Of a stretch of 51,411 bases of DNA, positions 12,918 through 44,268 are shown piece after piece. The notes beneath the pieces are model-generated. The model made no database searches. It saw only the letters and a list, made by a program, of their open reading frames with translations, and was not told where the DNA came from. Origin of the DNA: an uncultured Gammaproteobacteria bacterium (GTDB lineage Bacteria > Patescibacteriota > Microgenomatia > UBA12405 > JAHJSD01); the NCBI GenBank assembly GCA_964498425.1, contig CAZCGQ010000005.1, positions 1-51,411 of the forward strand, in the 5' to 3' direction. The position numbers and the translations under genes were made by a program. The number at the start of each line of letters is the position of its first letter. Positions within the stretch are counted from its first letter, which is position 1.

Positions 12918-12938
12918 TGTTCAATGTTCTATGTTCCA
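12918..12938. repeat. 7-bp tandem array (TGTTCnA x3), intergenic
   Basis: tgttcaa tgttcta tgttcca, located 10 nt upstream of the four-helix-bundle gene start. Its reverse complement belongs to the TAGAAnn family. Confidence 0.6.
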
Positions 12939-12944
12939 AATACA

Positions 12945-14486
12945 TTATTCGTATATTTGTGTCTGCGGAAATTCTTTAACTAGTCTACCATTTTTCGGCG
13001 GTTGATTTGAAAAAGTATACCTGTCAAACTGGCGGACCGTAGAGAAACCAAACTCATCCGGAGGGGTTAGTTCAATTTCTGCCTGCATTTTTTCCGGCGA
13101 ATATTTAGAATAAAAAGCGGTCAAAATGTAGGGCTGATCATGTTTGGTAACAATTGTAAACGCCTGATTAGGCTGTTCAACCATCCACTTTACCGCCTCT
13201 TGATAACCTCGTGGCCAAGCGGTAGGATACCGTTGCAAATAATGTACAAAATAATTGTTCCACCAAAGCATTATCCCCCACAAATAACCACAAATTATCA
13301 ACCCGCAACCTGTAACTCGTAACAATTTCCCCTTTATGCATAATAACTTTTTACACCCGTAAGCGGTAAAAAAGGTTAGTGGAATGACCATCGACAATGA
13401 CCTTAAGGCTGACGGTGCCTGAAAGGTTAATGAGGATGCTACTGGCGTTAAAATAACTAATAAGACAGGCAAGTACTTATCCTTCATCTTGCTTTTAATA
13501 AACTTCCAACCACCAACGACTAGCCACAACCCGCTAATTAAATGCATTTGACCCATTCCTGGAATTTTACTTCTCGGCACTTCATCTCCAGAAATAAACA
13601 AGAAATTACCATTAAAATGTGAAAAATAATTTTCGGTTAATGAGATTACATAACCCAGATATCGATTATGGAAAATTGTTGGTACTAAACTATCCGTATT
13701 TTGATGCTGGGCTCTTAGTTCGTTAATTCGCCATAAAGGTCCGGTATCCGCAAACAATCCTACTCCAGAAAAACGAGAACTTGCTCCCCCACTTAAAAAT
13801 GAAACTGCTAAAGGAACAATTAGAATAAATCCGACAATAATTGGCAAGTACAACTTCTTTTTTAACTGCCATAATTTCTGAAAATTAAAAATAGCTAATC
13901 CCAAAAAAAGTAAAGGAGCGATTAATCGTGCACTGTGATAAACATACATACTCGCAATCAGCGATAGAATTGAAAATTGAAAATTGAAAATTGAAAATTC
14001 ACGACTTTTTTTAATAGCAGCAAAGAAAAAGTATATCCCTAGAGTAATAAAAAAAGTCGCTGTATTACTTTCCCAACCACCGCGTGAAAAATGGAGATGC
14101 CAAGGAGACACTGCTAATAAAAAAGCCCAAGCCAGCCCTAATTTGCGGTCATTCCAAATAAGCATGGACAGTTTATAGACAAGAAAAATAGTTAATAGCG
14201 ATAAAATTACTGCCGGCAGTCGAACAGCAAAGGTATTTAATCCCAAAATCGCTACTGAAGGTAAAACTAAATAAAAGTACCCCCCCGGTTTAAAGTCCCC
14301 AAAAGACTTAAAATCTACCGGCCAAGAAACACCGTGCTCGTCACGGCCTGTCTTCAACAAACTGTATACATTATAACCAATTGCTGCCTCATCAGCATTT
14401 AGCGGCGGATAACTTCCAATCCGATAAAACCTAAGGAAGGATGCCAAAATCAAAATAATAATTAAATAAATAGTTGTTTTCCTCAT
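12945..14486 (-). CDS. GT-C membrane glycosyltransferase, PMT/ArnT-like (GT39/GT83-type), tandem paralogue 1
   Basis: 513 aa. Loop-1 motif YPPLNADEAAIGYNVYSLLKTGRDEHG, then SPWHLHFSRGGWE. About 11 helices plus a C-terminal soluble domain (GYQEAVKWM...PYILTAFYSKY). Confidence 0.75.
   Translation of the reverse strand: MRKTTIYLIIILILASFLRFYRIGSYPPLNADEAAIGYNVYSLLKTGRDEHGVSWPVDFKSFGDFKPGGYFYLVLPSVAILGLNTFAVRLPAVILSLLTIFLVYKLSMLIWNDRKLGLAWAFLLAVSPWHLHFSRGGWESNTATFFITLGIYFFFAAIKKSREFSIFNFQFSILSLIASMYVYHSARLIAPLLFLGLAIFNFQKLWQLKKKLYLPIIVGFILIVPLAVSFLSGGASSRFSGVGLFADTGPLWRINELRAQHQNTDSLVPTIFHNRYLGYVISLTENYFSHFNGNFLFISGDEVPRSKIPGMGQMHLISGLWLVVGGWKFIKSKMKDKYLPVLLVILTPVASSLTFQAPSALRSLSMVIPLTFFTAYGCKKLLCIKGKLLRVTGCGLIICGYLWGIMLWWNNYFVHYLQRYPTAWPRGYQEAVKWMVEQPNQAFTIVTKHDQPYILTAFYSKYSPEKMQAEIELTPPDEFGFSTVRQFDRYTFSNQPPKNGRLVKEFPQTQIYE
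13964..13999. repeat. 7-bp tandem array (TGAAAAT x4 perfect plus 1 degenerate)
   Basis: Four perfect units occupy 13971-13998. Sense strand encodes IFNFQFS inside paralogue 1. Confidence 0.9.
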
Positions 14487-16180
14487 TGACTTCCTCCCTC
14501 ATAACCATAAAACATTGTTTTCCCGCCAATTGTGCCAATTGCCTCCAAATTGTTAAAAACTGGCTTACCTTCCAATTCATTTCTAAACATCTCATCCTCA
14601 GAAATAATCAATAATAAATCTTTATTTTTTGAGTCTTCACCCCAGTTAATTGGCTCAAAACTTATCTTGTCAATTTGCCTAACTCTACCAACGTCAACCT
14701 GATTAGATTCTTCAAAAAACGCTTGATTTTGGAATTTAACTGGTGGGTACTTAGAGTAAAACAAATAAAAAATATGGGGTTGGCCATAAAAATCCGTCAT
14801 TTTAATCTCTTTAAAATTTCCTTTCTTATCATTGATATAGTTCACAGCCTGCTGATGCCCGTAAAGCCACTGTTTAGGATTAAGCTTGACCAAATGGTTG
14901 TAATAAAGGTCTAAATAATAACCCCCGTCCAGCATAACGAAAATGAATAAGATAACTAGTCCGCAACTCGCCCACCTTGCCGCAAGGTAGGTAACACGTA
15001 AGAATTTAATTTTAAATAACTCATTTAATCCATAAGCAATAAAAAAGCTAATTGCAATAATCGTTGGTAAAGCCCGAACCGAAGAAACTGAATCTCGTGT
15101 TAAAACTGAAGGCAGAGGAATTATAACCAACCAATAAAGCCAAAAATTCTCCTGCCAGCGTTTATTTTTACTGACAAAAAATATTAGGCCTAAAATTAGC
15201 AAAATAAATCCTAGATGACCAATTACCCCAAAATAAGGTGCCGAATGTCTGGCATTTTGCCAGTCCCCTTCAAAGGCCAAAAAGCGCGGAGAAAAATGAT
15301 TGAAATAACGAGACAAACCACCTCGCAAAAAATGCAACCACTCACCATGGAATAAATTGTAATGAATACTTTTTTTTTCTATTTGGTCCTCAAATAAAAT
15401 TTGGTTTACTTCTTGGTCTGGCCGGTGATATGAAAATAAGCTGGCTACCTTTAAGCGATTGCTTGCCGGACCAGAAAAGGAAGCAGTGTACCACCAAGCG
15501 GCGAGTATCAGGAATATTGAACTTAGAACATAGAACTTAGGGATAAGAATATTTTTCCACCCCCCCGGTTCTTGGTTCATGGTTCTAACCCACAGATACA
15601 CCAATCCCAGTCCAACCAACGGAACAACCATCTTCGCGCCCTGGTAAGTCACCAAAGCAAAAATAAAGGAAATTAACCCGGCAATGAGCCATTGACATTT
15701 ATCGTTGCTTATCCACTTAACAATTGCATAGGAACCAACCGTTATTAAAAAGGTCATTACGTTCGTCTCCCAAGCACCGCGAGAAAAGTGAATATGCCAA
15801 GGCATCAGTGCCAATACTCCAGCACTGATTAGTGATAGACGGTCACTTTTACTAATTTCTCTAACCAAAAGATATAAAATAAACGGTGTCAAACTACCTA
15901 AAATAATTGAAGGAAGTCGAACAGCTAATTGGTTTAGGCCCAAAATCCCGACAAACGGAATCGATAAATAAATATATAAGCCAGGTTTATAATCACCAAA
16001 AGACTTAAAAATTAACGGCATGAACTGACCGTATTCATCCTTACCAGTTTTTAAAATTGAATAAGCATTGTAACCCAAGCTTGCCTCATCCCAAAGTAAG
16101 GGAGGATATTGGCCGACCCGATAAATCCTTAATCCAAAACTAATAATTAAAATTAGAATTAAAAAATATTTATTTTTCAT
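14483..16180 (-). CDS. GT-C membrane glycosyltransferase, PMT/ArnT-like, tandem paralogue 2
   Basis: 565 aa with YPPLLWDEASLGYNAYSILKTGKDEYG and MPWHIHFSRGAWE. C-terminal domain LYGHQQAVNYI...QPHIFYLFYSKY. Confidence 0.75.
   Translation of the reverse strand: MKNKYFLILILIISFGLRIYRVGQYPPLLWDEASLGYNAYSILKTGKDEYGQFMPLIFKSFGDYKPGLYIYLSIPFVGILGLNQLAVRLPSIILGSLTPFILYLLVREISKSDRLSLISAGVLALMPWHIHFSRGAWETNVMTFLITVGSYAIVKWISNDKCQWLIAGLISFIFALVTYQGAKMVVPLVGLGLVYLWVRTMNQEPGGWKNILIPKFYVLSSIFLILAAWWYTASFSGPASNRLKVASLFSYHRPDQEVNQILFEDQIEKKSIHYNLFHGEWLHFLRGGLSRYFNHFSPRFLAFEGDWQNARHSAPYFGVIGHLGFILLILGLIFFVSKNKRWQENFWLYWLVIIPLPSVLTRDSVSSVRALPTIIAISFFIAYGLNELFKIKFLRVTYLAARWASCGLVILFIFVMLDGGYYLDLYYNHLVKLNPKQWLYGHQQAVNYINDKKGNFKEIKMTDFYGQPHIFYLFYSKYPPVKFQNQAFFEESNQVDVGRVRQIDKISFEPINWGEDSKNKDLLLIISEDEMFRNELEGKPVFNNLEAIGTIGGKTMFYGYEGGSQ
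15512..15553. repeat. 7-bp tandem array (degenerate GAAnnTA/TAGAAnn x6)
   Basis: gaatatt gaactta gaacata gaactta gggataa gaatatt. Sense strand encodes KFYVLSSIF in paralogue 2. Confidence 0.7.
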
Positions 16181-17801
16181 AGCTTATAATTTCAAAAGCT
16201 GTTTCACCATGCAAAAAGTCAATTTCCCTGACCAACTTTCCACCTTCGATATAATTTCCCGGGCTGGTCACTAATAATATCTTCTCTTCCTCGTCACTAA
16301 CTTTTAACTTTTCCTTTATCTCCCAATTATTCCAAAATTGAAACTTATCAAAACCGTCAACCCAATACCAGTGAGTGTGGTAATCCCATTTTTTGTCTGG
16401 ATCGTTTTGATAATAGCTTGGCTTCCACGGCCAGTGAAATAAAATAAATTCATGTGGTTCGCCATATCTTTTAGTGAAAATAATTTTGTCATATTTACCA
16501 TAATTTTCCTTGACGTAGTTAACCGCTTGTTTATAACCGTATTGCCAGGACCAGGAATAATTAGCCCGATATATCTGCCAGTACTGATTCCACCAAGAAC
16601 CAAAACTAACCAGGGTTATTCCAATAAAAGCCGCAATTACTGCCCACCCTCCCAATTTTGACTTACTCTTCCTAAGAAAGTTTTTAACCTCAATGAGACC
16701 GTAGGCCGAAATAATGGCCGGAACAGGCAGGATGAGAATACTCCTTAAAACGTGAGGAGAATCCTTAGTTATTGCTGAAGGGACGAAACTAACTGCCAAC
16801 CAAAACAACCAAAGGTATTTCTTCTCTCTGATCAGCAAATATACCCCGTAAATTAAAAAAGGAGCGGTTATCAAATAGATTAATTCATGTCCGGGAAATG
16901 AAAATTGATAATTCTCTCCACCGCGAAAAAACAGCCATCTTGGCGAAAAATGCTTAAGGTAATTTTTGAAAGCAGTAGTAGCAAAATATGTTGGCCGATT
17001 AAAGAGTAGTTTTTTGAAAATAAACGGTAAAGAAGATGACCCGCGCCTTTCATTAATTTGATTAACTACCCCTTGGTCAACAATATTTACCCAATATAAT
17101 CTAGCTCGCCCAGATTGGCTGAAAAATTGACTGACTACTGGCAAAGCAAAAAGAACAAAAACAACTGCTGTTAATCCCAATTTCTTAAATTTTCTTTGTT
17201 GAAGTAATTTTGTCAGTAATATAACGCCGGCAACTGGAACTAAAACACGGGCTGAATTATAGGAGTAGACAGACAGTGACCAAAAAATACTGGTAGCCAA
17301 ATAATAGTTATTAAAGAACATTAACCAACCTAATGAAAATAAAAAGACGGCTAAATTTGCTTCTACCGCTACTCGGGATAAAAATAATGCCCAGGGCATC
17401 GTTGCCGTAATAAAAGCAGCCAACAGTCCACCTACCCTGCTTTTAGTTAATTTTTTTGCTAAAAAGTAACTGACCACAATTAACCCGGTTCCAGATAAAA
17501 TTGAAATCAATCTCACTCCAAGTGCATTTAAGCCAAACAACCTTATTATCGGTACTGTTAGGTAAATATACAGAGGAAGTTTAAAATCTCCATAGGCTCT
17601 GAAGATTAATGGAAATGATTTTCCCCACTCATCACGACCAGTTTTTAAAATTGAGTAAGCATTATAACCATGCGATACTTCATCCCAATTTAAAGAGGGG
17701 GGATTGCTACCGATACTGTAAATTCGCAAAAAAAAGCCACCTAAAACAATAAAAATGAAAATTAGGTTAAACTTTGATAATATAGATGGCCGGTTCTTCA
17801 T
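16170..17801 (-). CDS. GT-C membrane glycosyltransferase, PMT/ArnT-like, tandem paralogue 3
   Basis: 543 aa with NPPSLNWDEVSHGYNAYSILKTGRDEWG. C-terminal domain QYGYKQAVNYV...EPHEFILFHW. Confidence 0.75.
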   Translation of the reverse strand: MKNRPSILSKFNLIFIFIVLGGFFLRIYSIGSNPPSLNWDEVSHGYNAYSILKTGRDEWGKSFPLIFRAYGDFKLPLYIYLTVPIIRLFGLNALGVRLISILSGTGLIVVSYFLAKKLTKSRVGGLLAAFITATMPWALFLSRVAVEANLAVFLFSLGWLMFFNNYYLATSIFWSLSVYSYNSARVLVPVAGVILLTKLLQQRKFKKLGLTAVVFVLFALPVVSQFFSQSGRARLYWVNIVDQGVVNQINERRGSSSLPFIFKKLLFNRPTYFATTAFKNYLKHFSPRWLFFRGGENYQFSFPGHELIYLITAPFLIYGVYLLIREKKYLWLFWLAVSFVPSAITKDSPHVLRSILILPVPAIISAYGLIEVKNFLRKSKSKLGGWAVIAAFIGITLVSFGSWWNQYWQIYRANYSWSWQYGYKQAVNYVKENYGKYDKIIFTKRYGEPHEFILFHWPWKPSYYQNDPDKKWDYHTHWYWVDGFDKFQFWNNWEIKEKLKVSDEEEKILLVTSPGNYIEGGKLVREIDFLHGETAFEIISYEK

Positions 17802-19431
17802 TTGGATACCTAATTATTGTATCAGGTTTAACGTTATAGGGAAATTCTTCAGGTTTACCGATAAGAACTGAACCCTTGATTAAGGAATCAGACGCCCAGT
17901 TTATCTCTTTAAAGAGATATTTACCCAGCCGATACTCGCCTAACTGATCAACAAAGCTTAAACCCTCTTCTTCATATCTAAGCCAATCCTCTGTTTCCTT
18001 CTGGGCTTTGGCCGGCGGATATTGACCGCAAAATAAAGCGTAAGCTTGTGGTTCGGAAAGCTTTCTTGACATAATAATTTGTTCAGCTTGTGAATAATTT
18101 TTTTGTACATATTCAACTGCTTCACACCGCCCATAAAGCATTGCCTCCGCCGTCAGCCGCGGAGACTGGACAAAATAAACCTCCAAGAAAGAAATAAAGG
18201 AATAAATAAATAAAGTGATCAAGATTGGAATTATAATTTTTAACTTTTCACTTTTAACTTTTAACTTCCAGCTGCTCCAAGCGATAAGCATCTGGATGAA
18301 TGGCATCATTACTGCTGCCCGATTGCCCATCCTGCTTCCCTTAGTCAACGCCGCCGGAATCGGGGCAACTAATATTACCGCCAGTAAAGATAGTACAGCG
18401 ATCATTGTATTATCTTTACCAATTGACTTGATTAAATGAATTACACCATAAATTAAAACTAGCAATGTCCACCACCACAAAACTCCATAACCAGGCATCA
18501 TCCCGTAAGTACCTTCACCTGGGCCCTCTGTAAACAAAAATTGGGGTGAAAAATAAGTTAAATAATTCTCAAAAAACTTTGAAAAAGTGTATGTAGCCTT
18601 ATTATGAACTATCCGTGCTAATCCACTGGGGATTTGGTGGTTAACTGCCCACCAACGACTGTCTTTAACCACTTGCCACTTATCTGTTGGGCTAAACACA
18701 GCAATATCTAAACCTCGAGATTGGCCACCAGTAATAAAGGAAGAAAAAGCAACTAGAAAGAAGATAGAATATAGAACTAAGAAGCTAGAATTTTGGGAAA
18801 AATATTCTTTTACTGCATTAAGCTTTGAGCCTTTAGCTCTTAGCAATATTTTTGCGACACACAAAAATATTACCACCGGGGTAATTAATTTGGCACTGTG
18901 GTAAGAAAACATATTTAGTCCCAGTAAAACTGCCGACAGAATTTGATAGTTTTTTAATAACGCCCAAACCCCAAATGAGATAAAAAAAACTGTCATGTTA
19001 GCCTCAAAGGCTCCGCGTGATAACGGCCAATGCCACGGTGAAAAAGTAATCAAGCCTGCAGAAATTAAACCTATTTGAGGAGATTTTAACAATTCTCTAG
19101 CTAAAAGATAAACTCCCAAAATTGCTAATGTTCCTAATAATGCATTTGGAAAACGTACAGAGAATTTATTTAATCCAAAAAGTTTTATCGAAGGGATAAT
19201 TAAATAAGTCTGCAGTGGCGGTTTGTAATCACCGTAAGACCTTAGATTTAAAGGCCAAGACTTGCCCCATTCATCCCTGCCCGTTTCTATTAAAGAATAG
19301 GCAGTATAACCCTGCATTGCTTCATCTGGCGTCAACCCAGCTGGATATTTTTCCAATTTCCACAACCGCAAGAATCCCCCCGCAATAACTAAAAAACTTA
19401 AAACTAGAATATGTCTATTTCTATTATTCAT
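17767..19431 (-). CDS. GT-C membrane glycosyltransferase, PMT/ArnT-like, tandem paralogue 4
   Basis: 554 aa with YPAGLTPDEAMQGYTAYSLIETGRDEWG and SPWHWPLSRGAFE. C-terminal domain LYGRCEAVEYV...EPQAYALFCGQY. Confidence 0.75.
   Translation of the reverse strand: MNNRNRHILVLSFLVIAGGFLRLWKLEKYPAGLTPDEAMQGYTAYSLIETGRDEWGKSWPLNLRSYGDYKPPLQTYLIIPSIKLFGLNKFSVRFPNALLGTLAILGVYLLARELLKSPQIGLISAGLITFSPWHWPLSRGAFEANMTVFFISFGVWALLKNYQILSAVLLGLNMFSYHSAKLITPVVIFLCVAKILLRAKGSKLNAVKEYFSQNSSFLVLYSIFFLVAFSSFITGGQSRGLDIAVFSPTDKWQVVKDSRWWAVNHQIPSGLARIVHNKATYTFSKFFENYLTYFSPQFLFTEGPGEGTYGMMPGYGVLWWWTLLVLIYGVIHLIKSIGKDNTMIAVLSLLAVILVAPIPAALTKGSRMGNRAAVMMPFIQMLIAWSSWKLKVKSEKLKIIIPILITLFIYSFISFLEVYFVQSPRLTAEAMLYGRCEAVEYVQKNYSQAEQIIMSRKLSEPQAYALFCGQYPPAKAQKETEDWLRYEEEGLSFVDQLGEYRLGKYLFKEINWASDSLIKGSVLIGKPEEFPYNVKPDTIIRYPNEEPAIYIIKV
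18238..18267. repeat. 7-bp tandem array (TTTTAAC/TTTTCAC x4)
   Basis: ttttaac ttttcac ttttaac ttttaac. Sense strand encodes KLKVKSEKLK in paralogue 4. Confidence 0.85.
18758..18792. repeat. 7-bp tandem array ([t/a]AGAAnn x5)
   Basis: aagaaga tagaata tagaact aagaagc tagaatt. Sense strand encodes SSFLVLYSIFF in paralogue 4. Confidence 0.65.
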
Positions 19432-19436
19432 TACAA

Positions 19437-19464
19437 ACCACTAGCCACTAACACCTAATCGCTA
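19437..19464. repeat. 7-bp tandem array (CCACTAn-type x4, degenerate)
   Basis: accacta gccacta acaccta atcgcta. Spans the TAG stop of paralogue 5 and the 23-nt gap before the paralogue 4 start. Minus-sense TAGGTGT TAGTGGC TAGTGGT. Confidence 0.65.
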
Positions 19465-21086
19465 CTTGTTACCCAATACATTAACGGATTTCCCCATGGA
19501 TCATCCACTGCTTTTTCAATTTTCAATCCCTCCGGGGAACTTAATTCCCAATCCCAATCCCCTGGGACTTCCTTTCCTTGATAAGCTAAATACAAATCAT
19601 TAGAGTTTAAATTTTCCTTTAACCAGTTGATTTTATCTTCCATTGTAATTAGGCCAAAGTAAGTATTATTGATTTCAAAGCCATTAAAATCAGAAAGTAT
19701 ATTTTCATTCAGCTGGTCGTTATCAAAATTTTGATGAAACTCCCTCGGATTAATTTCATTCCAAAACAAATATCGAATAAGTCCTGGCTCTAAAGAATTG
19801 CTGATAATTACGCGTTGATTATCTCTGTTTTTCTTCAACCAAGTCATTGCCTCCCGATAACCGTAGTGCCAATGCCGATATGTTTCTTGCTGATAATGTA
19901 CAAAATAATAATGAAAAAAGAAAAATAAGTTAATAAATAGTAATAAGTAAACGGGAGCAAGTAACAATTTCTTTTTAACAGAATTAAGACCCAAACTAAC
20001 AAGGATAACCAGGGGTGGAAGCATCAAAAATAGACGAGTCGCCTGATTACCGCCGCCAACAGTCAAAGCAGATGGAATTGGCGAAACTAACAGCCAGGAA
20101 GTCATCAAAACTTTAAACTGATTACTATGATTTTTGAACAACTCCAAGACACCTAACATCATAAATGGTGCAAATAACCAATAAAATTGTCCGTAATCGG
20201 GCAAACTATGCCGAGGGTTTGGATCCCCGTTCAAAAATAGAAACTGTGTCGAAAAGGAAGCTAAGTAATTAGAAACAAAATTGCCACCCCACCCAGTTAA
20301 CTTATTATGAAAAACCCTCTCTACCTCCGGATTAATTCCTGTATTTCGCAGATGAATAATCTTTCTAATTGTCACATCATCTCCAAAAATGCTTATCAAG
20401 TTAAACCTCCCAGCAGCTTGGCCCAAAAATATTTGATAAACAATAGGCAAACCTACCACTAAAAGGATAATTCCAGGTAAAATCATCCCTTTTAGACCAC
20501 TAAATATCTTTTTTCTTTTGGAAAAGATGAGTACTAGTCCCAATAAGGGGACAAAAACATTGGCTGTATTGTAGGTATAAAAGCTAAGTCCAAAAAGTAA
20601 AGCAGAAAGGGAAAATTTTTCTTTGTAAAAGAACAACGTTCCGGCCAAAACAAGTCCAAGAAGCAAAGTTGATTCAAATGCCGTTCGTGAATAATGAATG
20701 TGCCAAGGAATTACAGCTAAAACAAACCCGGATAATAAGCCCAGCTGTTTGTTATCAGCTAATTCCGTGACTAAACGGTAAATCAAATATACATTTAACA
20801 CTCCTAACAAAACCACTGGTAGCCTAACTGACCAAGCGGAAAGTCCCAAAATACCAACAAAGGGAGCAGTTACATACATTAGCAGCGGAGCTCGCCATTC
20901 CGAAAAGGACTGAATATAAGTGGGCAGCAACTGCCCACGATAATCCCTGCCTGTCTGCCAAATAGAATAAGCATGATAACCAACATCAAGCTCATCACCA
21001 AATGGTTCTAGATGTCCCAATCTATAAATTCTTAATCCGAAAGCAAGAACCAAAACTAAAATTAAAATAAGTTTATTTTTCATCAA
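19455..21086 (-). CDS. GT-C membrane glycosyltransferase, PMT/ArnT-like, tandem paralogue 5
   Basis: 543 aa with LEPFGDELDVGYHAYSIWQTGRDYRG and IPWHIHYSRTAFE. C-terminal domain HYGYREAMTWL. Confidence 0.75.
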   Translation of the reverse strand: MMKNKLILILVLVLAFGLRIYRLGHLEPFGDELDVGYHAYSIWQTGRDYRGQLLPTYIQSFSEWRAPLLMYVTAPFVGILGLSAWSVRLPVVLLGVLNVYLIYRLVTELADNKQLGLLSGFVLAVIPWHIHYSRTAFESTLLLGLVLAGTLFFYKEKFSLSALLFGLSFYTYNTANVFVPLLGLVLIFSKRKKIFSGLKGMILPGIILLVVGLPIVYQIFLGQAAGRFNLISIFGDDVTIRKIIHLRNTGINPEVERVFHNKLTGWGGNFVSNYLASFSTQFLFLNGDPNPRHSLPDYGQFYWLFAPFMMLGVLELFKNHSNQFKVLMTSWLLVSPIPSALTVGGGNQATRLFLMLPPLVILVSLGLNSVKKKLLLAPVYLLLFINLFFFFHYYFVHYQQETYRHWHYGYREAMTWLKKNRDNQRVIISNSLEPGLIRYLFWNEINPREFHQNFDNDQLNENILSDFNGFEINNTYFGLITMEDKINWLKENLNSNDLYLAYQGKEVPGDWDWELSSPEGLKIEKAVDDPWGNPLMYWVTSSD

Positions 21087-22356
21087 CTAATAAAATAAAT
21101 TTATAAATATAATATCCAAAAGTTAATATTAACCCTAATGACATTAACCTAGCTAAAGCAAAGTTTTGCCATTCTAGGATAGTTCTTAAAAAAGGCAGGG
21201 ACGGGTACCACCAAAGGTTGTAAAGATTTAGCCAATGAATTACTGTCAAGCCGATAAATAATTTTAACGGAATAATTCCAAGGGCAGTTAAAATTGCACT
21301 TGGAGCGAAAACAGGATAAAGGTAACGTTCATGCATATTAGTTAAAAACAAAAAGGCAGTTAATGATAATAGAATTAGATTCAATAAATAAAACTTAAAT
21401 TTTGGTTTCGACTTTAACTGTTTAATAAGCCCAAATCCAGATAAAAACATCATGATTAATCCTGATAAAAAACGGCCAAATCTTCTAGCCGTCGTTCCCA
21501 AAAATGATACCGTTTCTTTTAAACCCAGGTCAACACCGAAAACTAGCGTCCAAAAATTAAAAGCATTTCCGGAAAGCATATTTCCCTGTCTGGGCAGGAC
21601 ACGATTGGTATACATATACCACAACCAAGTAAAAACATTCCCGTGATGAACAAAGGGAAGGGAAATTAGAAAATAGAAACTAGAAGATAGAATAAAGGCT
21701 AATAATATTTTTAACCATTCTTTGTTCCTAAGTAGTATCAGGCCGAAAATTGGAAGCCAGATTATTAATGACAGTTTAAAATACAAACTGCCGATAAAGG
21801 CTAATAAGCCCCAAAGGTATTTCTTATTCCAAATCAACCAAACTCCCATCAAAGCCAGTAAATTAATCAAAGGATCGGTTTGGCCCCAAACAGCAGAGTT
21901 ATAAATTAATGCCGGATTAAACCAAATTAATCCTCCACCAAGTAAAGCCTTTTTTTTATCTGCAGTAAGTTTAAGAACCATCCGGTAAACCAACCATCCC
22001 AAGCCTATTTCAGCTAGAACAAATGGAATTTTAACTAGAATAAAAGAAAGTTTTTTTTCGAGAAATGGCATTATAAACGAAGGAAACGCCCTAATTTCCT
22101 GATTTAAAAAGGTCAAGCCGTTAAACATTAATTCGTCTGCCTTAGTAATTGCCCCAAAAAGATACATTGATCCCGGCGGTTGGTTTGGCCAGGAAATGCC
22201 CCAAAAAATACTTTCGTAAAAATCCCTTGGACCGTATCGCCATAATCTTTGCCCCCAATCAATATGGTTTCTAATATCAGGATGATATTGAGCTCCAACC
22301 GCAATTACTAAACGAATAACTAGTGCTAAAACAACGAGTTTCTTTACCTTTGACAT
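21073..22356 (-). CDS. GT-C-like membrane glycosyltransferase (ALG6/ALG8- or Gpi18-like, COG5542-type)
   Basis: 427 aa, multi-pass. The loop DIRNHIDWGQRLWRYGPRDFYESIFWGISWPNQPPGSMYLF parallels the D-x-x-x-x-x-W...Y...DYPPL loop of ALG6/8-type enzymes. HERYLYP lies near the C-terminus. Confidence 0.55.
   Translation of the reverse strand: MSKVKKLVVLALVIRLVIAVGAQYHPDIRNHIDWGQRLWRYGPRDFYESIFWGISWPNQPPGSMYLFGAITKADELMFNGLTFLNQEIRAFPSFIMPFLEKKLSFILVKIPFVLAEIGLGWLVYRMVLKLTADKKKALLGGGLIWFNPALIYNSAVWGQTDPLINLLALMGVWLIWNKKYLWGLLAFIGSLYFKLSLIIWLPIFGLILLRNKEWLKILLAFILSSSFYFLISLPFVHHGNVFTWLWYMYTNRVLPRQGNMLSGNAFNFWTLVFGVDLGLKETVSFLGTTARRFGRFLSGLIMMFLSGFGLIKQLKSKPKFKFYLLNLILLSLTAFLFLTNMHERYLYPVFAPSAILTALGIIPLKLFIGLTVIHWLNLYNLWWYPSLPFLRTILEWQNFALARLMSLGLILTFGYYIYKFILLVDEK
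21667..21694. repeat. 7-bp tandem array (TAGAAnn x4)
   Basis: tagaaaa tagaaac tagaaga tagaata. Sense strand encodes LSSSFYFLIS. Confidence 0.8.
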
Positions 22357-23153
22357 AATTGGCTTGTTCTTATTATAAGATTAATTAGGTAATGTTCCAA
22401 AAGTCCGTGATACTTTCTACTGCTTTCCACTAACCATTGATTTGGCTTTTCAGCTAAATTTTTGCCGCTGGCTCCGTGTAAGTGGATAACTTTAGCTTCA
22501 GGTAAATAAACAATTCTTAAATCTTCTTGGCATGTCCTTCGGCAGTAATCAATATCCTCATAATACATAAAATACTTCTCATCCAGTAAACCAACTTTTT
22601 TCAATGTTTTCCTCGGCAATAACCAAACTGCTCCAACAACAGCCTCAACTTCTTGCGCCTCATTCCCTTCGGGGGTATATTTGCCAAATGCTTTGGAATT
22701 ACCCAACCAAAACTTTTTAACAGCCCCAACAACCGTCGGCAGTTTCAAACAAGAAGGTTGAACAGATCCATCTAAATTAAGTAACTGTGGAGCAACAATA
22801 CCAAGGTCATCATCTTTATTAGCAAAATCAATCAAGGCCTTGATACTCCCCGATTCTATTTCTGTATCGGTATTCAGCACAAGAAGATATTCTCCTTGTG
22901 CCTTTTCCAACCCCTGATTAACTGCCTTCCCAAACCCCAGATTCTCATTATTTTCTATCAAAATAATTTTGAACTTTGAACTTTGAACTTTGAACTTTCT
23001 GACAAACTCTACCGAGTTGTCAGAACTATTATTATCAACCACAATAACTTCTATCTCGGTCATAGGCAGTTGAAGGTTACAGACTAAACTTTTTAAGCAA
23101 TTTTGAAGCAGTTTTTTGGTATTAAAATTTACAATAATTATCGATAAGGTCAT
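22344..23153 (-). CDS. GT2-family glycosyltransferase
   Basis: 269 aa with LSIIIVNFNTKKLLQNCLKSL...VIVVDNNSSDNS...NENLGFGKAVNQG...LVLNTDT. Confidence 0.85.
   Translation of the reverse strand: MTLSIIIVNFNTKKLLQNCLKSLVCNLQLPMTEIEVIVVDNNSSDNSVEFVRKFKVQSSKFKIILIENNENLGFGKAVNQGLEKAQGEYLLVLNTDTEIESGSIKALIDFANKDDDLGIVAPQLLNLDGSVQPSCLKLPTVVGAVKKFWLGNSKAFGKYTPEGNEAQEVEAVVGAVWLLPRKTLKKVGLLDEKYFMYYEDIDYCRRTCQEDLRIVYLPEAKVIHLHGASGKNLAEKPNQWLVESSRKYHGLLEHYLINLIIRTSQLCQR
22968..22998. repeat. 7-bp tandem array (TTTGAAC x4 perfect)
   Basis: Four perfect units occupy 22968-22995. Sense strand encodes KFKVQSSKFK in the GT2 ORF. Confidence 0.9.
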
Positions 23154-24601: not shown

Positions 24602-25491
24602 ACTTTGTCAAATAACCTGAAAATCTCCTTATCCGTTCGGCGGTAACCATCAATTTTTGGACAGCCAAATTGTCGGTATCGCTTCTTGGCGTCTCTGATC
24701 ACCTTCAAATAATTCGGTCCGGTGAAAACGCGCTGAATTAATCCTAAATTATGTTTGAATCTTAAATCCTGATCTGTAATATTTTTCCAAATAAACAATA
24801 ATTGATTTCTTTCCTTAACCCGATTGACGAAATTCTTATTAATTTTTGAAATTGTTGATTCATGCTCGTGGACAACCTTAGCTTCAGGCTCCCAAATAAT
24901 TTTCCATCCCATTTTCCAGGCACGATAACTAATGTCAGTGTCCTCCCAGTAAAATGGATCAAACATCGGGTCAAATCCATTTAGCTTGTTCCACATTTTT
25001 TTTCTAAAAACAGCACTTCCTCCCGATGCCCAACCGCTGATATGAGCCTGATCCGTCTTCTCACCTGGTAGATAGTTAAAAAAACCATCTACCCAGAAAA
25101 TATCCGCCCAACCACCTTCTCCGTTTACTTCATTAAAAGAGACCGCAAAAACCTCTTCATCACTAAAATGATCAACTGCTGGTGCCAAAAAATTTTTCTT
25201 CGGAACAACATCATTATTAAGTAAAACAACGTAATCTCCTTTGGCCATTTCCACACCCTGATTACACCCCCCAATAAATCCTAAATTATCGTCATTAAAA
25301 ACTGTTTTTAACTTTTCATTTTTAACCTTTAACTGTTCAAGATACTCCCTTGAACCGTCCTCACTGCCATTTTCAATCACAATAATTTCACTATTCTCAG
25401 GGGCATTTTTTAACACCCCGGGCAGATTTTTTCGCAGAAGTTTCTCACCATTCCAAGTAGGAATGATAATTGAACTAATAACCTTTGACAT
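24598..25491 (-). CDS. GT2-family glycosyltransferase
   Basis: 297 aa with SSIIIPTWNGEKLL...IIVIENGSEDGS...DDNLGFIGGCNQG...VLLNNDV. Confidence 0.85.
   Translation of the reverse strand: MSKVISSIIIPTWNGEKLLRKNLPGVLKNAPENSEIIVIENGSEDGSREYLEQLKVKNEKLKTVFNDDNLGFIGGCNQGVEMAKGDYVVLLNNDVVPKKNFLAPAVDHFSDEEVFAVSFNEVNGEGGWADIFWVDGFFNYLPGEKTDQAHISGWASGGSAVFRKKMWNKLNGFDPMFDPFYWEDTDISYRAWKMGWKIIWEPEAKVVHEHESTISKINKNFVNRVKERNQLLFIWKNITDQDLRFKHNLGLIQRVFTGPNYLKVIRDAKKRYRQFGCPKIDGYRRTDKEIFRLFDKV
25309..25336. repeat. 7-bp tandem array (TAACTTT-type x4, degenerate)
   Basis: taacttt tcatttt taacctt taactgt. Sense strand encodes LKVKNEKLK. Confidence 0.65.
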
Positions 25492-37387: not shown

Positions 37388-38950
37388 TTAATTAGAAATT
37401 TTAAAGAATAATAACTTATCTTCTCCCGCCTTATCATAGGCTTGAATTAATTCCAGCCCCTCCGCGGCACGTCCTTCTATTTTATAACGACTTTGGTTAA
37501 CTACCAAATAAGTTTTGTTCCCTGCCTCCTTAGATTCGATCAACGGGTCTGGGATCGATTTTATCGGATAGCCAAGACCAATAACAGTGATATTTTTAAC
37601 TCCCTCAACATAAATTTGCAACCCGTTCGGCAATGTTCCGAAATGTCCTTCCGTCCCAACGACGATATTATCATCCTCGGCACGACCTTTTAAGTAATCA
37701 GCAATTGACCTTATTCCCTGACCGGCCGTCCAATTTTCTAAATAACCGGCCCGATCATCTGCCGGCAAATTAGCCTTAACCGGAGAAAACCATAAATGGT
37801 AGTTAAATATAAATGCGGGAAAGAACAATATTAAAAACGTTAAAACAGTTATTGCGTTACGAGTTCGCGGGTTACGGGTTAATTTAATTATTTCTAAACT
37901 GGCAACTCGTAGTCCATAACTAACAAACACAATAAACACTGGGACAGTAAACAAAATATAACGGGCAGTAAAATCTTTAGCAATTAACGCCTGAACCAAC
38001 ATCGGCCCAACTATCCAAATCATTAATAACAACCATTTTTTACTAAATCTCTTAATTCCCTTGATCGCACCTATAATTCCTAGTAGAAGTAATGGTGATG
38101 TCAAATAATGCCAGTAATACCTAGTCATATCCCCTAATCGTGCCAAGGTTGGCCGAATTGGATCAGCGACAATTTCCTGAACAGACCGAACATAATCCTT
38201 ATTTCTTAGTCCAAGCATATGAAAATTCGGGCCTAAACGAAGAATGTTATACATCATGTAAGCAATACCTAAAGAAACGCCAATTAATGCAATAGTAGGG
38301 ACAATCCTAGGATTGTCCTTACAAATAGACAGTAGACCTACCGTCATCACCACTAACCCGACAAAAAATACCGCTGGACTTTTGGTGAGTAATCCACCCC
38401 CTAAAACCATTCCTAAAATCATCGCTATATCCAAACGCTTAGTCTCGGCCAATAAAATAGATAAATTCAATGACCAAATCCCAAATCCGGCTAATAAGCT
38501 GTCCACCAAAGCCATCCGATCAAAAAACAAAGTAAACGGTGCAATTACATAAATCAACCCCGCTATTAACCCAATTACAATGGATTGGTTCATTATAATT
38601 GGCAGGATTATTACTCCCAGTAAAGTCATTAAGCCCGAGAAAACCGAAACTAAACGACCAGCTAACAAAGGATCATTAATTACCTTTAAAAAAGGTATTG
38701 TCAACCACATAAATAACGGCTGTTTACCATCTTGAAGAGGAACAAATCTCAGACTGGGAACATTTCGCATTATTTGGGACCAACGAACGTAAATTGCTTC
38801 ATCAGCAAAGATTGGCAGTTTTCTTAAATGAAAAACCCGCGTTAAAAAATATAAACAAATAATTAAAAATATATACAAAATCTGTTTTTTTGAAAATTGA
38901 AAATTGAAAATTGGAGTTTTTATTTCAATCATACTTTCCTCGAAGGTCAT
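37388..38950 (-). CDS. GT-C membrane glycosyltransferase, ArnT-like
   Basis: 520 aa with LPIFADEAIYVRWSQ (Asp-Glu loop-1 motif), multi-pass, and a C-terminal soluble domain. Its start overlaps the preceding polyprenyl-P sugar synthase gene by 26 nt. Confidence 0.7.
   Translation of the reverse strand: MTFEESMIEIKTPIFNFQFSKKQILYIFLIICLYFLTRVFHLRKLPIFADEAIYVRWSQIMRNVPSLRFVPLQDGKQPLFMWLTIPFLKVINDPLLAGRLVSVFSGLMTLLGVIILPIIMNQSIVIGLIAGLIYVIAPFTLFFDRMALVDSLLAGFGIWSLNLSILLAETKRLDIAMILGMVLGGGLLTKSPAVFFVGLVVMTVGLLSICKDNPRIVPTIALIGVSLGIAYMMYNILRLGPNFHMLGLRNKDYVRSVQEIVADPIRPTLARLGDMTRYYWHYLTSPLLLLGIIGAIKGIKRFSKKWLLLMIWIVGPMLVQALIAKDFTARYILFTVPVFIVFVSYGLRVASLEIIKLTRNPRTRNAITVLTFLILFFPAFIFNYHLWFSPVKANLPADDRAGYLENWTAGQGIRSIADYLKGRAEDDNIVVGTEGHFGTLPNGLQIYVEGVKNITVIGLGYPIKSIPDPLIESKEAGNKTYLVVNQSRYKIEGRAAEGLELIQAYDKAGEDKLLFFKISN
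37856..37884. repeat. 7-bp periodic tract, GC-richer flavour (GTTACGn-type, about 4 units with one 1-nt slip)
   Basis: gttacga gttcgcg ggttacg ggttaat. Sense strand encodes TRNPRTRNA in the ArnT-like ORF. Confidence 0.5.
38295..38320. repeat. 26-nt element with perfect 20-bp palindrome, copy A (intragenic)
   Basis: gtagGGACAATCCTAGGATTGTCCtt, with the palindrome at 38299-38318. Encodes KDNPRIVPT in the ArnT-like ORF. 26/26 identical to copy B. Confidence 0.95.
38891..38911. repeat. 7-bp tandem array (TGAAAAT x3 perfect)
   Basis: Lies within codons 14-20 of ORF 37388..38950. Sense strand encodes IFNFQFS, the same peptide as the array at 13971. Confidence 0.9.
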
Positions 38951-41888: not shown

Positions 41889-41912
41889 AAGTACAAAATT
41901 ACTAAATTATAT

Positions 41913-41938: not shown

Positions 41939-41946
41939 GTGAAAAG

Positions 41947-43041
41947 ATGAATAGAAACACAAAAAATATTTTATTTTTATCGGTAATAACAGTAATTACC
42001 ACACTAGCAGTTTGGCTTCCTTTTTCACTACGCAACCAAATGCCAAAGGTTTTTGCTAATTTTGATGGTCCCAATTACCTTGTCATCGCTAAATGCGGCT
42101 ATGACCCGCAGTGCATCCGCACAACCTTTTCCTTGCCCCAACCAGTTGAATACTACCCCGCTCACTTTCCCGGTTATCCCTTACTAATTTCAGCCTTCGA
42201 TCAAATACTTCCCGGTTGGTGGGCAATGCTCATTGCTAATCTTTTCACCACTTTAACTATGGTAACAATCATATATTTATTGCTTAAACAACTAGAAGTA
42301 AAATCTGCTTTCTGGCTGTCTCTTCTCAGCTTGTTTTTACCAGCTCGTATGCTCGTTTTAAGAACAGTGGGGGCACCGGAAACACTCTTTATCACCCTTC
42401 TTCTTGCCTCAATCTACTTTTACCGCCAAAAAAAGTATTGGCCGGCCGGAATTTTTCTAGCTTTTGCTCAACTAACCAAAACTCCGGCAATTTTGTTATT
42501 TATAGCCTACTTTATTGACACTTTTTTAAGTGTTAAATGGTCAATGAAAAAATGGCTAAATAAAACTCCGCTTTTATTAGGCCCTGCCGTCATTCTCCCC
42601 CTCTTTCTTGTTTTTCAAAACCAAACCGGCAATTTTCTCGCCTATTTCAACTCTGGCGATAACTTTCATCTTGTCCCAATTCCTTTTCAAACCTTTGTTT
42701 CATCACGTTCATGGCTGGGCGACTTCTGGCTAGAAGATATCGTTTACGTCTACCTAATTGGAGGTTTAGCCATCACTCAGCTTTGGAAAAAATATCACGG
42801 AAAAATTATTGCCATTTTTCCAACTATCTTCTATATGGCAACACTCTTTGTCGCTCACCGCGATATTTCCCGCTATTCTGCCCCACTCTACTTTTTCTAT
42901 TTACTTGCCTTTAAGAATTTTTTGAAGAAGAAGGAATTTAGAATTGTCTTCTTTATTTTGTTACCGGCAGTTTATTTCTTTGCCATTAACTTCATCAACT
43001 ACAATGTCGCCCCAATCGCCGACTGGACACCGTATAAATAG
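41947..43041 (+). CDS. GT-C-like membrane mannosyltransferase (PIG-V/Gpi18-like)
   Basis: 364 aa, multi-pass. FANFDGPNYLVIAKCGYDP matches the same loop motif as ORF 3003..4241. One of only two plus-strand genes in the island; the other is the RAYT transposase gene (10517..11242). Confidence 0.55.
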   Translation: MNRNTKNILFLSVITVITTLAVWLPFSLRNQMPKVFANFDGPNYLVIAKCGYDPQCIRTTFSLPQPVEYYPAHFPGYPLLISAFDQILPGWWAMLIANLFTTLTMVTIIYLLLKQLEVKSAFWLSLLSLFLPARMLVLRTVGAPETLFITLLLASIYFYRQKKYWPAGIFLAFAQLTKTPAILLFIAYFIDTFLSVKWSMKKWLNKTPLLLGPAVILPLFLVFQNQTGNFLAYFNSGDNFHLVPIPFQTFVSSRSWLGDFWLEDIVYVYLIGGLAITQLWKKYHGKIIAIFPTIFYMATLFVAHRDISRYSAPLYFFYLLAFKNFLKKKEFRIVFFILLPAVYFFAINFINYNVAPIADWTPYK

Positions 43042-43076
43042 CCACAACTCACTAATCACTAGCCACTAGCCGCTAT
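43042..43076. repeat. 7-bp tandem array (CCACTAG-type x5) between convergent genes
   Basis: ccacaac tcactaa tcactag ccactag ccgctat. Fills the 31-nt gap between the two stop codons and places stop triplets at 7-nt spacing on both strands. Confidence 0.8.
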
Positions 43077-44215
43077 TTATTTTTCCAAATAACCTTGTTG
43101 TACATCAACCAGTTGTAAGGGAGAACCAGAAAGACAATAATAAACGGCAAATATACCTGCCGGTACTGCGGCCCAAAAGCAAAGGTCAATAAAGAACCGG
43201 CAACAGTCTGGATTACTAAGGCCCCGGCTGAAGTAAAGTTAAACTGTAAAAATTTGCTGATGACCTTACTAATTGTTTTAAATTGCGTATCCTTGAAAGT
43301 CCAAAGATTATTTAGGATAAAATTTGAAATAATTGCCAACTCAGTTGCTAAGCCCCACACTGCCCACTCTGGAAAACCGGCATTAGCAAAAACAGCTACT
43401 CCGGTAGCATTAACTACATATCCAATGGTCCCAACCGTCCCAAATTTGAAAAATTTCTGAGTAACTTTATCGTGCCACCTAAGGAGAAAAACCGTCCGAA
43501 ATATATCCTTGGCTGTCTGGCCGGTAATTTTCGATTCTCCCGCCTTCCTCAGCTGAAACTCCAAAGGAATCTCCTTTACTTTCGCTCCCAACTGAACCAT
43601 TTTATATAAAAATTCCAATTTATATCCAAACTGCCTTGAGTAGAGATCATCCATCTCCATTTTGTCAACAAACCCTTTCACCCGAGAAGCCTTTAACCCA
43701 GTGGTCGGATCAGTAATCTTAAAAAATTGTTTAAATGGGAAAAACAAGACAAATCTAGCAACCAAGCCACCGACTTCCGAAAAGAAAACGCGCTTGAATC
43801 CCCAACCCCTGGGGTTAGACCCGCCCTTAATCTTCCTTGACCCTAAAACATAATCATAGCCATTGTCAATTTCCTTTAATAAAATAGGAATTCGATCGGG
43901 TGGATGTTGAAAATCACCATCAAACTCAATCAAAACATCGGCGTTCATCTTATCCATTGCATAACGAAAACCCTTAACGTAAGCCGCACCTATTCCCTCT
44001 TTTTTCTTCTCGACGAAAACTTCCAAGTTGTCAAATTTTTTCTGTTTTTCTTTAACAATATCCGCTGTCCCATCAGGAGATTGGGCATCTACAACAAGAA
44101 GTTTACATTCCCAGCCAATTGCTTTTGGAAAGGTTTTGTTGAATAGGTGTTCAACCATCTCTCCGATTGTTTCCGCTTCATTGTAAGTGGGAATAACAAC
44201 TACAGCAGTTTTCAT
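43073..44215 (-). CDS. GT2 polyprenyl-phosphate mannosyl/glycosyltransferase fused to a GtrA-like membrane domain
   Basis: 380 aa. N-terminal VVVIPTYNEAETI...VVDAQSPDGT...EFDGDFQHP is DPM1/Ppm1-like. C-terminal FFKFGTVGTIGYVVN...ELAIISNFILNNLWTF is the GtrA-family signature. Confidence 0.85.
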   Translation of the reverse strand: MKTAVVVIPTYNEAETIGEMVEHLFNKTFPKAIGWECKLLVVDAQSPDGTADIVKEKQKKFDNLEVFVEKKKEGIGAAYVKGFRYAMDKMNADVLIEFDGDFQHPPDRIPILLKEIDNGYDYVLGSRKIKGGSNPRGWGFKRVFFSEVGGLVARFVLFFPFKQFFKITDPTTGLKASRVKGFVDKMEMDDLYSRQFGYKLEFLYKMVQLGAKVKEIPLEFQLRKAGESKITGQTAKDIFRTVFLLRWHDKVTQKFFKFGTVGTIGYVVNATGVAVFANAGFPEWAVWGLATELAIISNFILNNLWTFKDTQFKTISKVISKFLQFNFTSAGALVIQTVAGSLLTFAFGPQYRQVYLPFIIVFLVLPYNWLMYNKVIWKNK

Positions 44216-44223
44216 TAGATTAT

Positions 44224-44268
44224 CTTTTCACTTTTCACTTTTCACTTTGCACTTTGAATTTTTAACTT
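44224..44268. repeat. 7-bp tandem array (CTTTTCA x3, then CTTTGCA, CTTTGAA, TTTTTAA)
   Basis: Spans the last 8 codons and TGA stop of the DUF192 gene and reaches to 9 nt upstream of the GT2-GtrA start codon. Minus-sense TGAAAAG x3. Confidence 0.85.

Follow-up and report, generated by a model that had tools for sequence, protein, structure and literature searches.

Why should a bacterial contig that consists almost entirely of genes carry, at many separate places, short head-to-tail repeats of seven nucleotides (nt), a unit length that is not a multiple of three? The question arises from contig CAZCGQ010000005.1 (assembly GCA_964498425.1), whose positions 1 to 51,411 (51,411 nt, the whole stretch analyzed, hereafter the window) have 37% G+C, are 97.9% coding with nearly all genes on the minus strand, and encode a glycosylation cluster of PMT/PMT_2-type GT-C enzymes, GT2 and GT4 glycosyltransferases, flippases and YfhO-like proteins, flanked by genes for the tRNA modification t6A (N6-threonylcarbamoyladenosine). 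The nearest homologues of the window proteins are found in Patescibacteria (Shapiro-, Woese-, Levy- and Daviesbacteria), and the host is Microgenomates-like, placing it in the candidate phyla radiation (CPR). The best explanation of the arrays, which we favor on balance, is that they are heptanucleotide simple sequence repeats (SSRs) that arise by heptamer-biased slippage and are filtered by selection on the reading frame, a coding-region variant of the heptanucleotide excess known in bacteria.

A periodicity of seven set at the DNA level

Tandem Repeats Finder (TRF) returned 53 tandem-repeat rows for the window, 17 of them with period 7 (16 loci). Exact runs, defined as consecutive positions at which base i equals base i+p, were compared with a null of 100 dinucleotide-preserving shuffles. 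At lag 7, runs of at least 9 matches number 7 against 0.45 expected, and those of at least 14 matches number 4 against 0.01, bearing out the heptamer arrays noticed in a first-pass annotation of this DNA. Among periods 2-15 a strong enrichment is seen only for 7 and its harmonic 14, the others being mildly elevated at most. The excess persists when codons are shuffled within open reading frames (ORFs; 6 observed vs 0.37, and 3 vs 0.00 for runs of at least 12), and likewise when synonymous codons are resampled with the proteins held fixed and the window's own codon usage (6 vs 0.92, and 3 vs 0.11 for runs of at least 12). The signal survives both controls, and therefore the periodicity is real, specific to seven and set at the DNA level. 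Once the arrays are masked, no excess lag-7 identity is left in the window, and the phenomenon is one of discrete arrays rather than of diffuse periodicity. An assembly artefact was considered and rejected, as the arrays are shorter than a read, in frame, patched at stop codons and common to orthologues from independent samples.

The arrays of the window are listed below.

12918..12936, minus strand: TGTTCWA (plus-strand unit) x2.7, found by TRF, filling the 36-nt spacer 12909-12944 upstream of ORF 12522..12908; lag-7 identity of the spacer 0.59
13968..13999, minus strand: perfect (AATTTTC)x4.6, encoding EFSIFNFQFSI, residues 163-173 of the GT-C (PMT_2) ORF 12945..14486
15512..15545, minus strand: degenerate (AAGTTCT), encoding LIPKFYVLSSIF in the GT-C ORF 14483..16180; the would-be in-frame TAA is TAT
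15567..15585, minus strand: short array of GGTTCWT (plus-strand unit) x2.7 in the GT-C ORF 14483..16180
16294..16316, minus strand: (AAAAGTT)x2.1, encoding KEKLKVS in the GT-C ORF 16170..17801
18234..18271, minus strand: (AAAAGTT)x~5, encoding WKLKVKSEKLKII in the GT-C ORF 17767..19431; in-frame TAA replaced by GAA
18755..18776, minus strand: (TTCTATN)x3.1, in a transmembrane segment of the GT-C ORF 17767..19431
19437..19460, minus strand: degenerate (CTAGTGG)-type, filling the spacer 19432-19454 and holding the TAG stop of ORF 19455..21086; lag-7 identity 0.62
19513..19527, minus strand: TTGAAAA x2 in coding sense, encoding GLKIEK in the GT-C ORF 19455..21086; a third unit would give an in-frame TGA
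21662..21692, minus strand: (TTCTANT)x4.4, encoding ILSSSFYFLIS in the membrane-protein ORF 21073..22356 (no Pfam match)
22968..22998, minus strand: perfect (AAAGTTC)x4.4, encoding RKFKVQSSKFK, residues 52-62 of the GT2 ORF 22344..23153
25305..25338, minus strand: degenerate (AAAAGTT), encoding QLKVKNEKLKT in the GT2 ORF 24598..25491, in the same loop as the 31447 array; TAA replaced by GAA
31447..31479, minus strand: (AAAAGTT)x4.7, encoding QLKVKSAKLKVI in the GT2 ORF 30719..31633, where helix alpha2 meets strand beta3; TAA replaced by GCA
38474..38488, minus strand: weak array of CCAAATC (plus-strand unit) x2 in the GT-C ORF 37388..38950
38890..38913, minus strand: perfect (AATTTTC)x3.4, encoding PIFNFQFSK, codons 13-21 of the GT-C ORF 37388..38950, in an N-terminal extension ahead of the first transmembrane helix
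43039..43075, no strand assigned: degenerate (TAGCCAC)x5.3 between the convergent ORFs 41947..43041 and 43073..44215; lag-7 identity 0.75
44220..44268, minus strand: (AAAGTGA/AAAGTTA), spanning the C-terminus (KLKIQSAK) and TGA stop of the DUF192 ORF 44242..44766 together with a 26-nt spacer

The first-pass annotation had counted at least 14 tracts of three to six heptamers. Eleven of these are solid (12918, 13968-13999, 15512-15545, 18234-18271, 18755-18776, 21662-21692, 22968-22998, 31447-31479, 38890-38913, 43039-43075 and 44220-44268), the context marks those at 25305-25338 and 19437-19460, though degenerate, as real, and a supposed GC-richer tract at 37856 finds no support; the copy numbers run from 2.1 to 5.3 units, and the arrays at 15567, 16298, 19513 and 38474 are additional to that count. 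The peptides it quoted and their host proteins were read correctly, the Pfam assignments of the array-bearing proteins to PMT/PMT_2 GT-C, GT2 and DUF192 being in agreement.

Most arrays lie inside ORFs because so little of the window is non-coding. The spacers make up 2.1% of it, and per nucleotide they are enriched for arrays approximately 10-fold; of the 14 intergenic spacers, four consist of arrays and have a lag-7 identity of 0.59-0.75 vs 0.2-0.35 in the other spacers. Within ORFs the arrays bear a clear imprint of the stop codons that their units contain. The units of the perfect arrays (AATTTTC)4.6, (AAAGTTC)4.4 and (AATTTTC)3.4 are free of stops in every phase when the consensus unit is translated. 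The unit AAAAGTT contains TAA, and each of its three long coding arrays deviates from the repeat exactly at the would-be in-frame TAA codon, which has become GAA, GAA and GCA, respectively; two of the three also end on their 5' side at the preceding would-be stop. TTGAAAA, which contains TGA, is found in sense orientation as two units only. Four ORFs terminate inside arrays, namely the DUF192 ORF at the TGA of its array and three others at the TAG of CTAG-type arrays. In the array at 43039..43075 the CTAG of the units supplies stops on both strands, and both of the flanking convergent ORFs end inside it. A comparable pattern may be read from FolD proteins of the CPR, in which one loop site holds FSIFNFQFS in some homologues and KIENWELKIL, RIANCELRIL or EIRNSKLEIL in others; judged from the peptides, the latter are probably encoded by GAAAATT, the reverse-complement unit, in which TGG, TGC or TCA (W, C, S) has taken the place of TGA. 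Thus, the arrays most likely persist only where the reading frame is kept, in tolerant loops, termini and spacers.

Turnover, conservation and spread of the arrays

Syntenic relatives of the window (the loci L302-L305, with up to 81% and 66% protein identity) allow individual arrays to be followed. The array at 13968 occupies one site and frame in L302, L303 and L304 as in the window, that is, in all four genomes; it is perfect in the window, has 2-3 substitutions in L302 and L303, and is interrupted in L304 by a 21-nt GC-rich insert. Arrays 15512 and 15567 are missing from the orthologue in L303, and 18755 and 19513 from an orthologue among the window's relatives; these four are lineage-specific, and their presence or absence leaves the ORF undisrupted. 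At 16294..16316 the array of the orthologue L304_2791, which belongs to the same family, is longer by exactly 7 codons (21 nt, three units), while at the site of 18234..18271 the orthologue L304_1140 holds a different, AATTTTC-type array together with a 21-nt GC-rich insert. Outright replacement is also seen in a pair of GT2 genes from one 90% cluster (P0041 and P0138, 93% DNA identity), which differ in length by exactly 21 nt and in which the loop sequence has been swapped; in the same genome pair, the N-terminus of the next gene bears (AGTTCAA)4.6 in one and (AAAATGA/AAAATTA)5 plus 36 nt in the other, between near-identical flanks. On the whole, changes in unit number between related genomes comprise one orthologue pair differing by three units and one cluster differing by 21 nt, with none at 99.99-100% identity.

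The same quantum is apparent in homologous families, where loop lengths step by 7 residues (21 nt, three units): the GT2 loop peaks at 22 and 29 residues, and FolD at 13/20 and 18/25/32 residues. In 778 kb of CPR DNA, perfect arrays measure 29-34 nt, being built of four complete units and a partial core of 1-6 nt; lengths of 21-28 nt form a trough, and longer arrays are missing. Such a length, four units plus k, is what a seed of one unit with microhomology would reach on gaining three units. That it is universal and set by the mechanism was considered, as it is seen in the CPR loci and in a metagenome scan, and was dropped since viral contigs peak at three units plus k. A further proposition, that arrays are always net insertions, was rejected, as those of TpiA and FolD align without gaps to solved homologues.

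Set against this turnover is a marked conservation of some arrays at the nucleotide level. The array at 13968 is 0.97 identical to that of L304 vs 0.67 elsewhere in the gene, and the GT2 array at 31447 shares 12/12 third codon positions with its counterpart in locus L084 vs 0.46 in the remaining gene. Even the paralogous arrays at 25305 and 31447, whose proteins are 33% identical, show a nucleotide identity of 0.83 vs 0.48 elsewhere. Between orthologues the amino acid identity in arrays is no higher than in the remaining gene while third-position identity is 0.82-1.00, and the constraint is therefore not on the peptide. Rather than conserving the peptides without DNA periodicity, distant orthologues are still period-7 in their DNA; this agrees with the persistence of the periodicity at synonymous sites and upholds the earlier suggestion of a DNA-level rather than protein-level phenomenon.

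Certain side observations concern individual loci. In locus L083 (~700-760) the GT2 loop has a period-8 repeat, (AAAGATAT)x2.6, where the 93%-identical gene of L081 has a degenerate heptamer array, indicating that the loop also tolerates other tandem periods. In L087 (6527-6576) a 2-nt insertion (GC) divides an (AAAGTTC) array into blocks of 30 nt and 18 nt; the heptamer register shifts there and the ORF stays open, which may reflect a compensated unit change. The 21-nt GC-rich sequence CTG(C/A)CTCGC(T/G)(G/T)CAA(G/A)GCGGGT occurs in two copies in L304 (5636-5656 and 2317-2337; also in L305), each inside an AATTTTC-type array of a different GT-C gene and each in frame (LPRCKAG, PDSRQSG). Peptides resembling its products (LPCRQAG, PACPAGR) are present in array-rich loops of CPR FolD homologues, and the sequence may be a tiny insert that targets arrays.

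Heptamer arrays are a trait of the group and not of the window alone. In 39 related CPR loci (636 kb), lag-7 runs of at least 12 matches number 9 vs 0.2 expected, with other periods reaching at most 2 except for 7 runs at the harmonic 14; in 38 loci from other phyla (607 kb), there are 4 vs 0.6 expected. The density in the window is about 7 times the CPR average. The units are highly diverse across the CPR loci, and what is constant is therefore the period and not the motif. One locus labelled Saccharibacteria (L044, 34% G+C, 2500-19450) has 11 exact period-7 arrays in 20 kb, several of them in one 1060-codon ORF, with units including AAAAGTC, AAAAACC, GAATTAC and AATTTTC.

In many lineages of GT2 homologues, heptamer-type peptides (KFKIQNSKFKIK, KFKVQSCSSKFKV, NFQFSIFNFQF, KLKVKNEKLKV) occupy the loop that connects the DxDGS helix with the NLGF strand; in other homologues this loop is short and canonical. 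In an AlphaFold model (predicted local distance difference test score, pLDDT, 93) the array covers the last part of helix 46-56, the loop after it and the first part of strand 60-64, and this block has the lowest confidence of the N-terminal half. The array in the GT2 loop of locus L097 is identical to an array in a window GT-C gene. In L001 (~1290-1400), the GT2 loop that bears arrays elsewhere is a run of N in the public record. An exact look-up of the window GT2 protein gave no match, and the window contig is unique in the protein collection searched.

A metagenome scan for (AATTTTC)3 yielded at least 120 DNA stretches. Among the matches listed, (AATTTTC)n arrays in ORFs of at least 100 codons are in the stop-free orientation in 79 of 80 cases; arrays of 30-32 nt lie within many unrelated genes, encoding TsaD, FolD, ValS, IleS, TpiA, Fmt, MurG and a GT2 loop, or just upstream of PlsY and UppS genes, on contigs with a GC content of 0.24 to 0.68; and 73 of 128 start in one preferred phase of the repeat irrespective of the reading frame. 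On GC-rich contigs (57-68% G+C) the arrays are 30-31 nt long with sharp ends, and occur as inverted pairs around a GC-rich loop, forming intergenic hairpins with 31-bp stems. Such (GAAAATT)~4.4/(AATTTTC)~4.4 arms, around an 18-40-nt loop that often starts with ATCGGAC, are found at L116 5565-5665, L192 2225-2313, L195 8671-8750 and 10760-10840, and in L147, L165 and L177; both hairpins of L195 are intergenic, lying between co-directional and convergent genes. The predicted DNA fold of such a hairpin has -33.7 kcal/mol (z = -10), and an Rfam scan of these loci gave sub-threshold microRNA-like matches only, which we take as spurious matches to long hairpins.

Proposed slippage filtered by the reading frame, and its rivals

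Under the explanation that we favor, arrays would originate by replication slippage or by microhomology-mediated tandem duplication, either of which would favor 7-nt steps. As the host has nearly no non-coding DNA, the repeats would mostly fall in ORFs, where selection would filter them. The net change would have to be a multiple of 3 nt, such that arrays gain or lose three units (21 nt, 7 residues) at a time; stop-free units could stay perfect, and stop-containing units would survive if a point change patches the in-frame stop, if they close a gene, or if they lie in a spacer. Arrays would be kept in permissive segments only, such as the alpha2-beta3 loop of GT2, N-terminal extensions, transmembrane segments and loops of GT-C proteins, and C-terminal tails. 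Each position of the unit is read in all three codon phases, and the spread of a variant through an array would thus require that all three frames tolerate it. This three-frame constraint would explain why the consensus of an array changes slowly while whole arrays turn over fast, and why synonymous sites are conserved. The outcome would be a fast in-frame turnover of low-complexity modules of 7 residues and not the switching of genes. Of the three hypotheses in the first-pass annotation, a mutational signature fits best, although it is not specific to the lineage, given the 39 related CPR loci and the heptamer excess known in other bacteria.

Several observations weigh against this explanation. 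A seed of 1.x units cannot gain three units in one simple slip, and intermediates with one or two additional units are frameshifts, so that slips would have to come in a burst, or intermediates to be tolerated. The abundance of seeds was tried as a predictor of the choice of unit and failed: AAAAGTT is 133rd among 493 proto-repeat classes, there are no proto-repeats of AAAGTTC, and the AAAAGTT family recurs 4-5 times in 51 kb despite its modest rank. The synonymous-site conservation of some arrays is far above that of the host genes (12/12 vs 0.46; 0.97 vs 0.67 at the nucleotide level), and (AATTTTC)n has both a preferred start phase and sharp-ended copies in contigs whose GC content (57-68%) makes local seeds unlikely. 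Moreover, the gap-free alignment of the TpiA and FolD arrays to solved homologues implies that not every array is a net insertion. The recurrence of unit families, the synonymous conservation and the presence of (AATTTTC)n in GC-rich bacteria therefore keep alive two other readings, in which the arrays are pre-formed cassettes or functional elements.

The main rival, which we regard as unlikely, holds that pre-formed cassettes of ~30 nt (AATTTTC, AAAGTTA/C, AATTTCC) are written or moved by a dedicated process, such as a mobile mini-element, templated repair synthesis or targeted insertion, and tolerated in frame. It would account for the frame-independent start phase of the 30-32-nt (AATTTTC)n arrays in genes as unrelated as those for TsaD, FolD, TpiA, Fmt, MurG and ValS, for the identity of the L097 GT2-loop array to one of a window GT-C gene, and for the recurrence of unit families beyond the prediction from seed abundance. 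It would equally accommodate arrays that are much better conserved than their flanks, extending to an 83% identical array in paralogues of 33% amino acid identity, homologous sites that hold different cassettes in related genomes, and the 21-nt GC-rich insert found twice in L304 within AATTTTC-type arrays. However, neither terminal inverted repeats nor target-site duplications nor conserved flanks were seen; the units are very diverse across CPR loci; array length varies from 2 to 12 units, with a mode of three units plus k in viral contigs; and the 7-residue quantization and the three-unit difference between orthologues fit unit-wise dynamics. No candidate enzyme is tied to the arrays, the only transposase of the window having unrelated flanking repeats. 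A related and somewhat less likely proposal is that of a dedicated mechanism which writes or propagates arrays across phyla, as ~4-unit cassettes in frame in CPR genes, as hairpins with inverted arms in GC-rich bacteria, and with 21-nt GC-rich inserts targeting the arrays. If true, the arrays would represent a novel class of minute DNA elements, either mobile or templated.

The first-pass annotation had likened the arrays to small elements tolerated in frame, after the example of the Rickettsia palindromic elements, which are palindromic, ~100-150 bp long and of fixed sequence. The likeness holds insofar as the arrays are small DNA-level insertions in permissive loops, termini and spacers, some of them missing from orthologues, through which unrelated proteins come to share peptides. 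It does not extend to the fixed sequence or palindromic structure of those elements: the window arrays are 15-37 nt long, tandem and non-palindromic, belong to many families, and have neither inverted termini nor conserved flanks.

That the arrays are functional nucleic-acid elements under selection at the DNA or RNA level, either as heptamer binding-site arrays with one protein per heptamer or as structural or regulatory signals, appears improbable. The conservation of synonymous sites far in excess of the host genes, the several short spacers upstream of start codons that are arrays, and the intergenic hairpins with 31-bp stems in GC-rich bacteria would be in line with such a role, as would the published binding of CspB, a cold-shock-domain protein, to heptamer repeats and the regulatory roles proposed for TAACTGA repeats. 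On the other hand, the arrays have many unit sequences in both orientations at arbitrary positions in genes for cytoplasmic housekeeping and membrane proteins, with no positional rule relative to genes seen; several window arrays are missing from orthologues, and unrelated arrays substitute for one another at the same site.

Contingency switching, the remaining hypothesis of the first-pass annotation, is not supported and must be considered very improbable. It would have the gain or loss of one unit shift the frame and thereby switch glycosyltransferases on and off, as in neuO of the E. coli K1 phage CUS-3, where an AAGACTC repeat of 3-53 units permits translation only at multiples of three units and the gene is OFF in 66% of genomes. 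The resemblance lies in a heptamer repeat, with a unit length not divisible by three, in the coding region of a surface-glycan-modifying enzyme; 13 of the 14 arrays with a score of at least 8 fall inside the glycosylation cluster, which takes up ~63% of the window by the ORF map (binomial estimate, p ~0.014), four arrays are perfect, and one occupies codons 13-21 of a GT-C gene. In contrast to the true switch of neuO, no window array exceeds 5.3 units, and the arrays keep the frame in every case and are stable between close relatives. None of 262 arrays, in which 68 array-strand combinations are open on each side for at least 60 codons, lies at a frameshifted or frameshift-split gene, every candidate being a gene junction. 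No change of array peptides was found within 90%-identity clusters, nor any change of unit number in three sets of near-identical assemblies (99.99-100% identity, 12 arrays), which may not be independent samples. Among the strains of the L087 group (88-99.8% identity; a biased set, the look-up having required an identical GT2 protein), the indels are not at heptamer arrays. Furthermore, the same type of array is found in essential cytoplasmic enzymes.

Finally, selection for short amphipathic peptides (KLKVKSxKLK, IFNFQFS), with the DNA periodicity as a by-product of codon bias, would be consistent with the recurrence of these peptides at the same loops in many homologues, but is largely refuted by the loss of most periodicity on synonymous resampling, by third positions that are conserved where the amino acids are not unusually so, and by the unrelated peptides that one DNA unit yields in its two orientations.

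Neighboring genes, known heptamer repeats and implications

The sole transposase of the window is a Y1/IS200-like protein (Pfam Y1_Tnp) encoded by ORF 10517..11242 on the plus strand, within 10401-11618. Copies of a hairpin-forming repeat, CCCAAGGTTCAAACCTAAYCAACCTTCAAGG, lie on both sides of it, an arrangement resembling the REP-associated tyrosine transposases (RAYT) with their repetitive extragenic palindrome (REP)-like repeats, and L304 has a Y1_Tnp gene at the equivalent place. As a source of the arrays this transposase is unsupported, its flanking repeats being unrelated hairpins. A small ORF within the glycosyltransferase cluster (12522-12908) matches the family of 23S rRNA intervening-sequence proteins and, weakly, the bAvd-like four-helix bundles; the window showed no reverse transcriptase. 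A fused Sua5/YrdC-TsaE gene and TsaD, separated by a HIT-like gene (44733-47441), form a compact t6A set adjoining the glycosylation cluster.

Dispersed short arrays of a 7-nt unit are known from heterocystous cyanobacteria (short tandemly repeated repetitive sequences, STRR), Xanthomonas (GGGAATC) and Beggiatoaceae (TAACTGA). The GGGAATC arrays mostly have four units, whereas the TAACTGA sets are of 2-6 copies and can reach into gene ends no further than their stop codons allow. In those systems one unit, or a few, dominate in each genome and the arrays lie mainly between genes, in contrast to the many unit families, mostly coding, of the window; the defining units of those systems are not present in the window, and its arrays are not members of those families. 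STRR units are G- or C-rich, unlike any unit of the window, and the closest homologues of the window are patescibacterial; a cyanobacterial locus in our set (L061) has 10 arrays in 20 kb.

In the survey of Mrazek et al. (2007), as relayed in PMC4692102 and PMC4679880, heptanucleotide repeats are the most abundant class of long SSRs in most genomes, and polymerase slippage is the suggested cause; this literature puts the weight on intergenic repeats and states that coding regions favor units that are multiples of three. The window arrays share with these SSRs their short head-to-tail 7-nt form and a period-specific excess, seen both in the window and in the 39 related loci, and differ in lying mostly in intact ORFs, quantized by 21 nt and stop-patched, in a CPR host. 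The tandem repeats of Borgs are likewise fast-evolving, set at the DNA level and found inside ORFs, where they form low-complexity protein segments, and flanking partial repeats suggest seeds; within ORFs all of their unit lengths are divisible by three (PMC9879509). The 7-nt unit of the window, by contrast, is read in three phases, and only steps of three units leave the frame unchanged. Our literature search found no account of such arrays in the CPR, and a full-text search for the array sequences and peptides returned nothing relevant. Arrays that lie mostly in ORFs, belong to several unit families, change in three-unit steps and are patched at stop codons in a CPR genome are thus a variant that we have not found described.

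If slippage filtered by the reading frame is indeed the cause, a simple mutational bias would continually insert, delete and replace 7-residue segments in the loops, termini and membrane segments of CPR proteins, essential enzymes included. This would account for odd peptides common to unrelated CPR proteins (KFKVQSSKFK, FSIFNFQFS), and would bear on the alignment and annotation of CPR genomes and on the exploration of protein sequence space by reduced genomes. The recurrence of units, the extreme synonymous conservation and the copies in GC-rich genomes make the bacterial preference for heptamer repeats directly testable. As each DNA position is read in three phases, the arrays offer a natural system for measuring the interplay of slippage, concerted evolution and frame selection.

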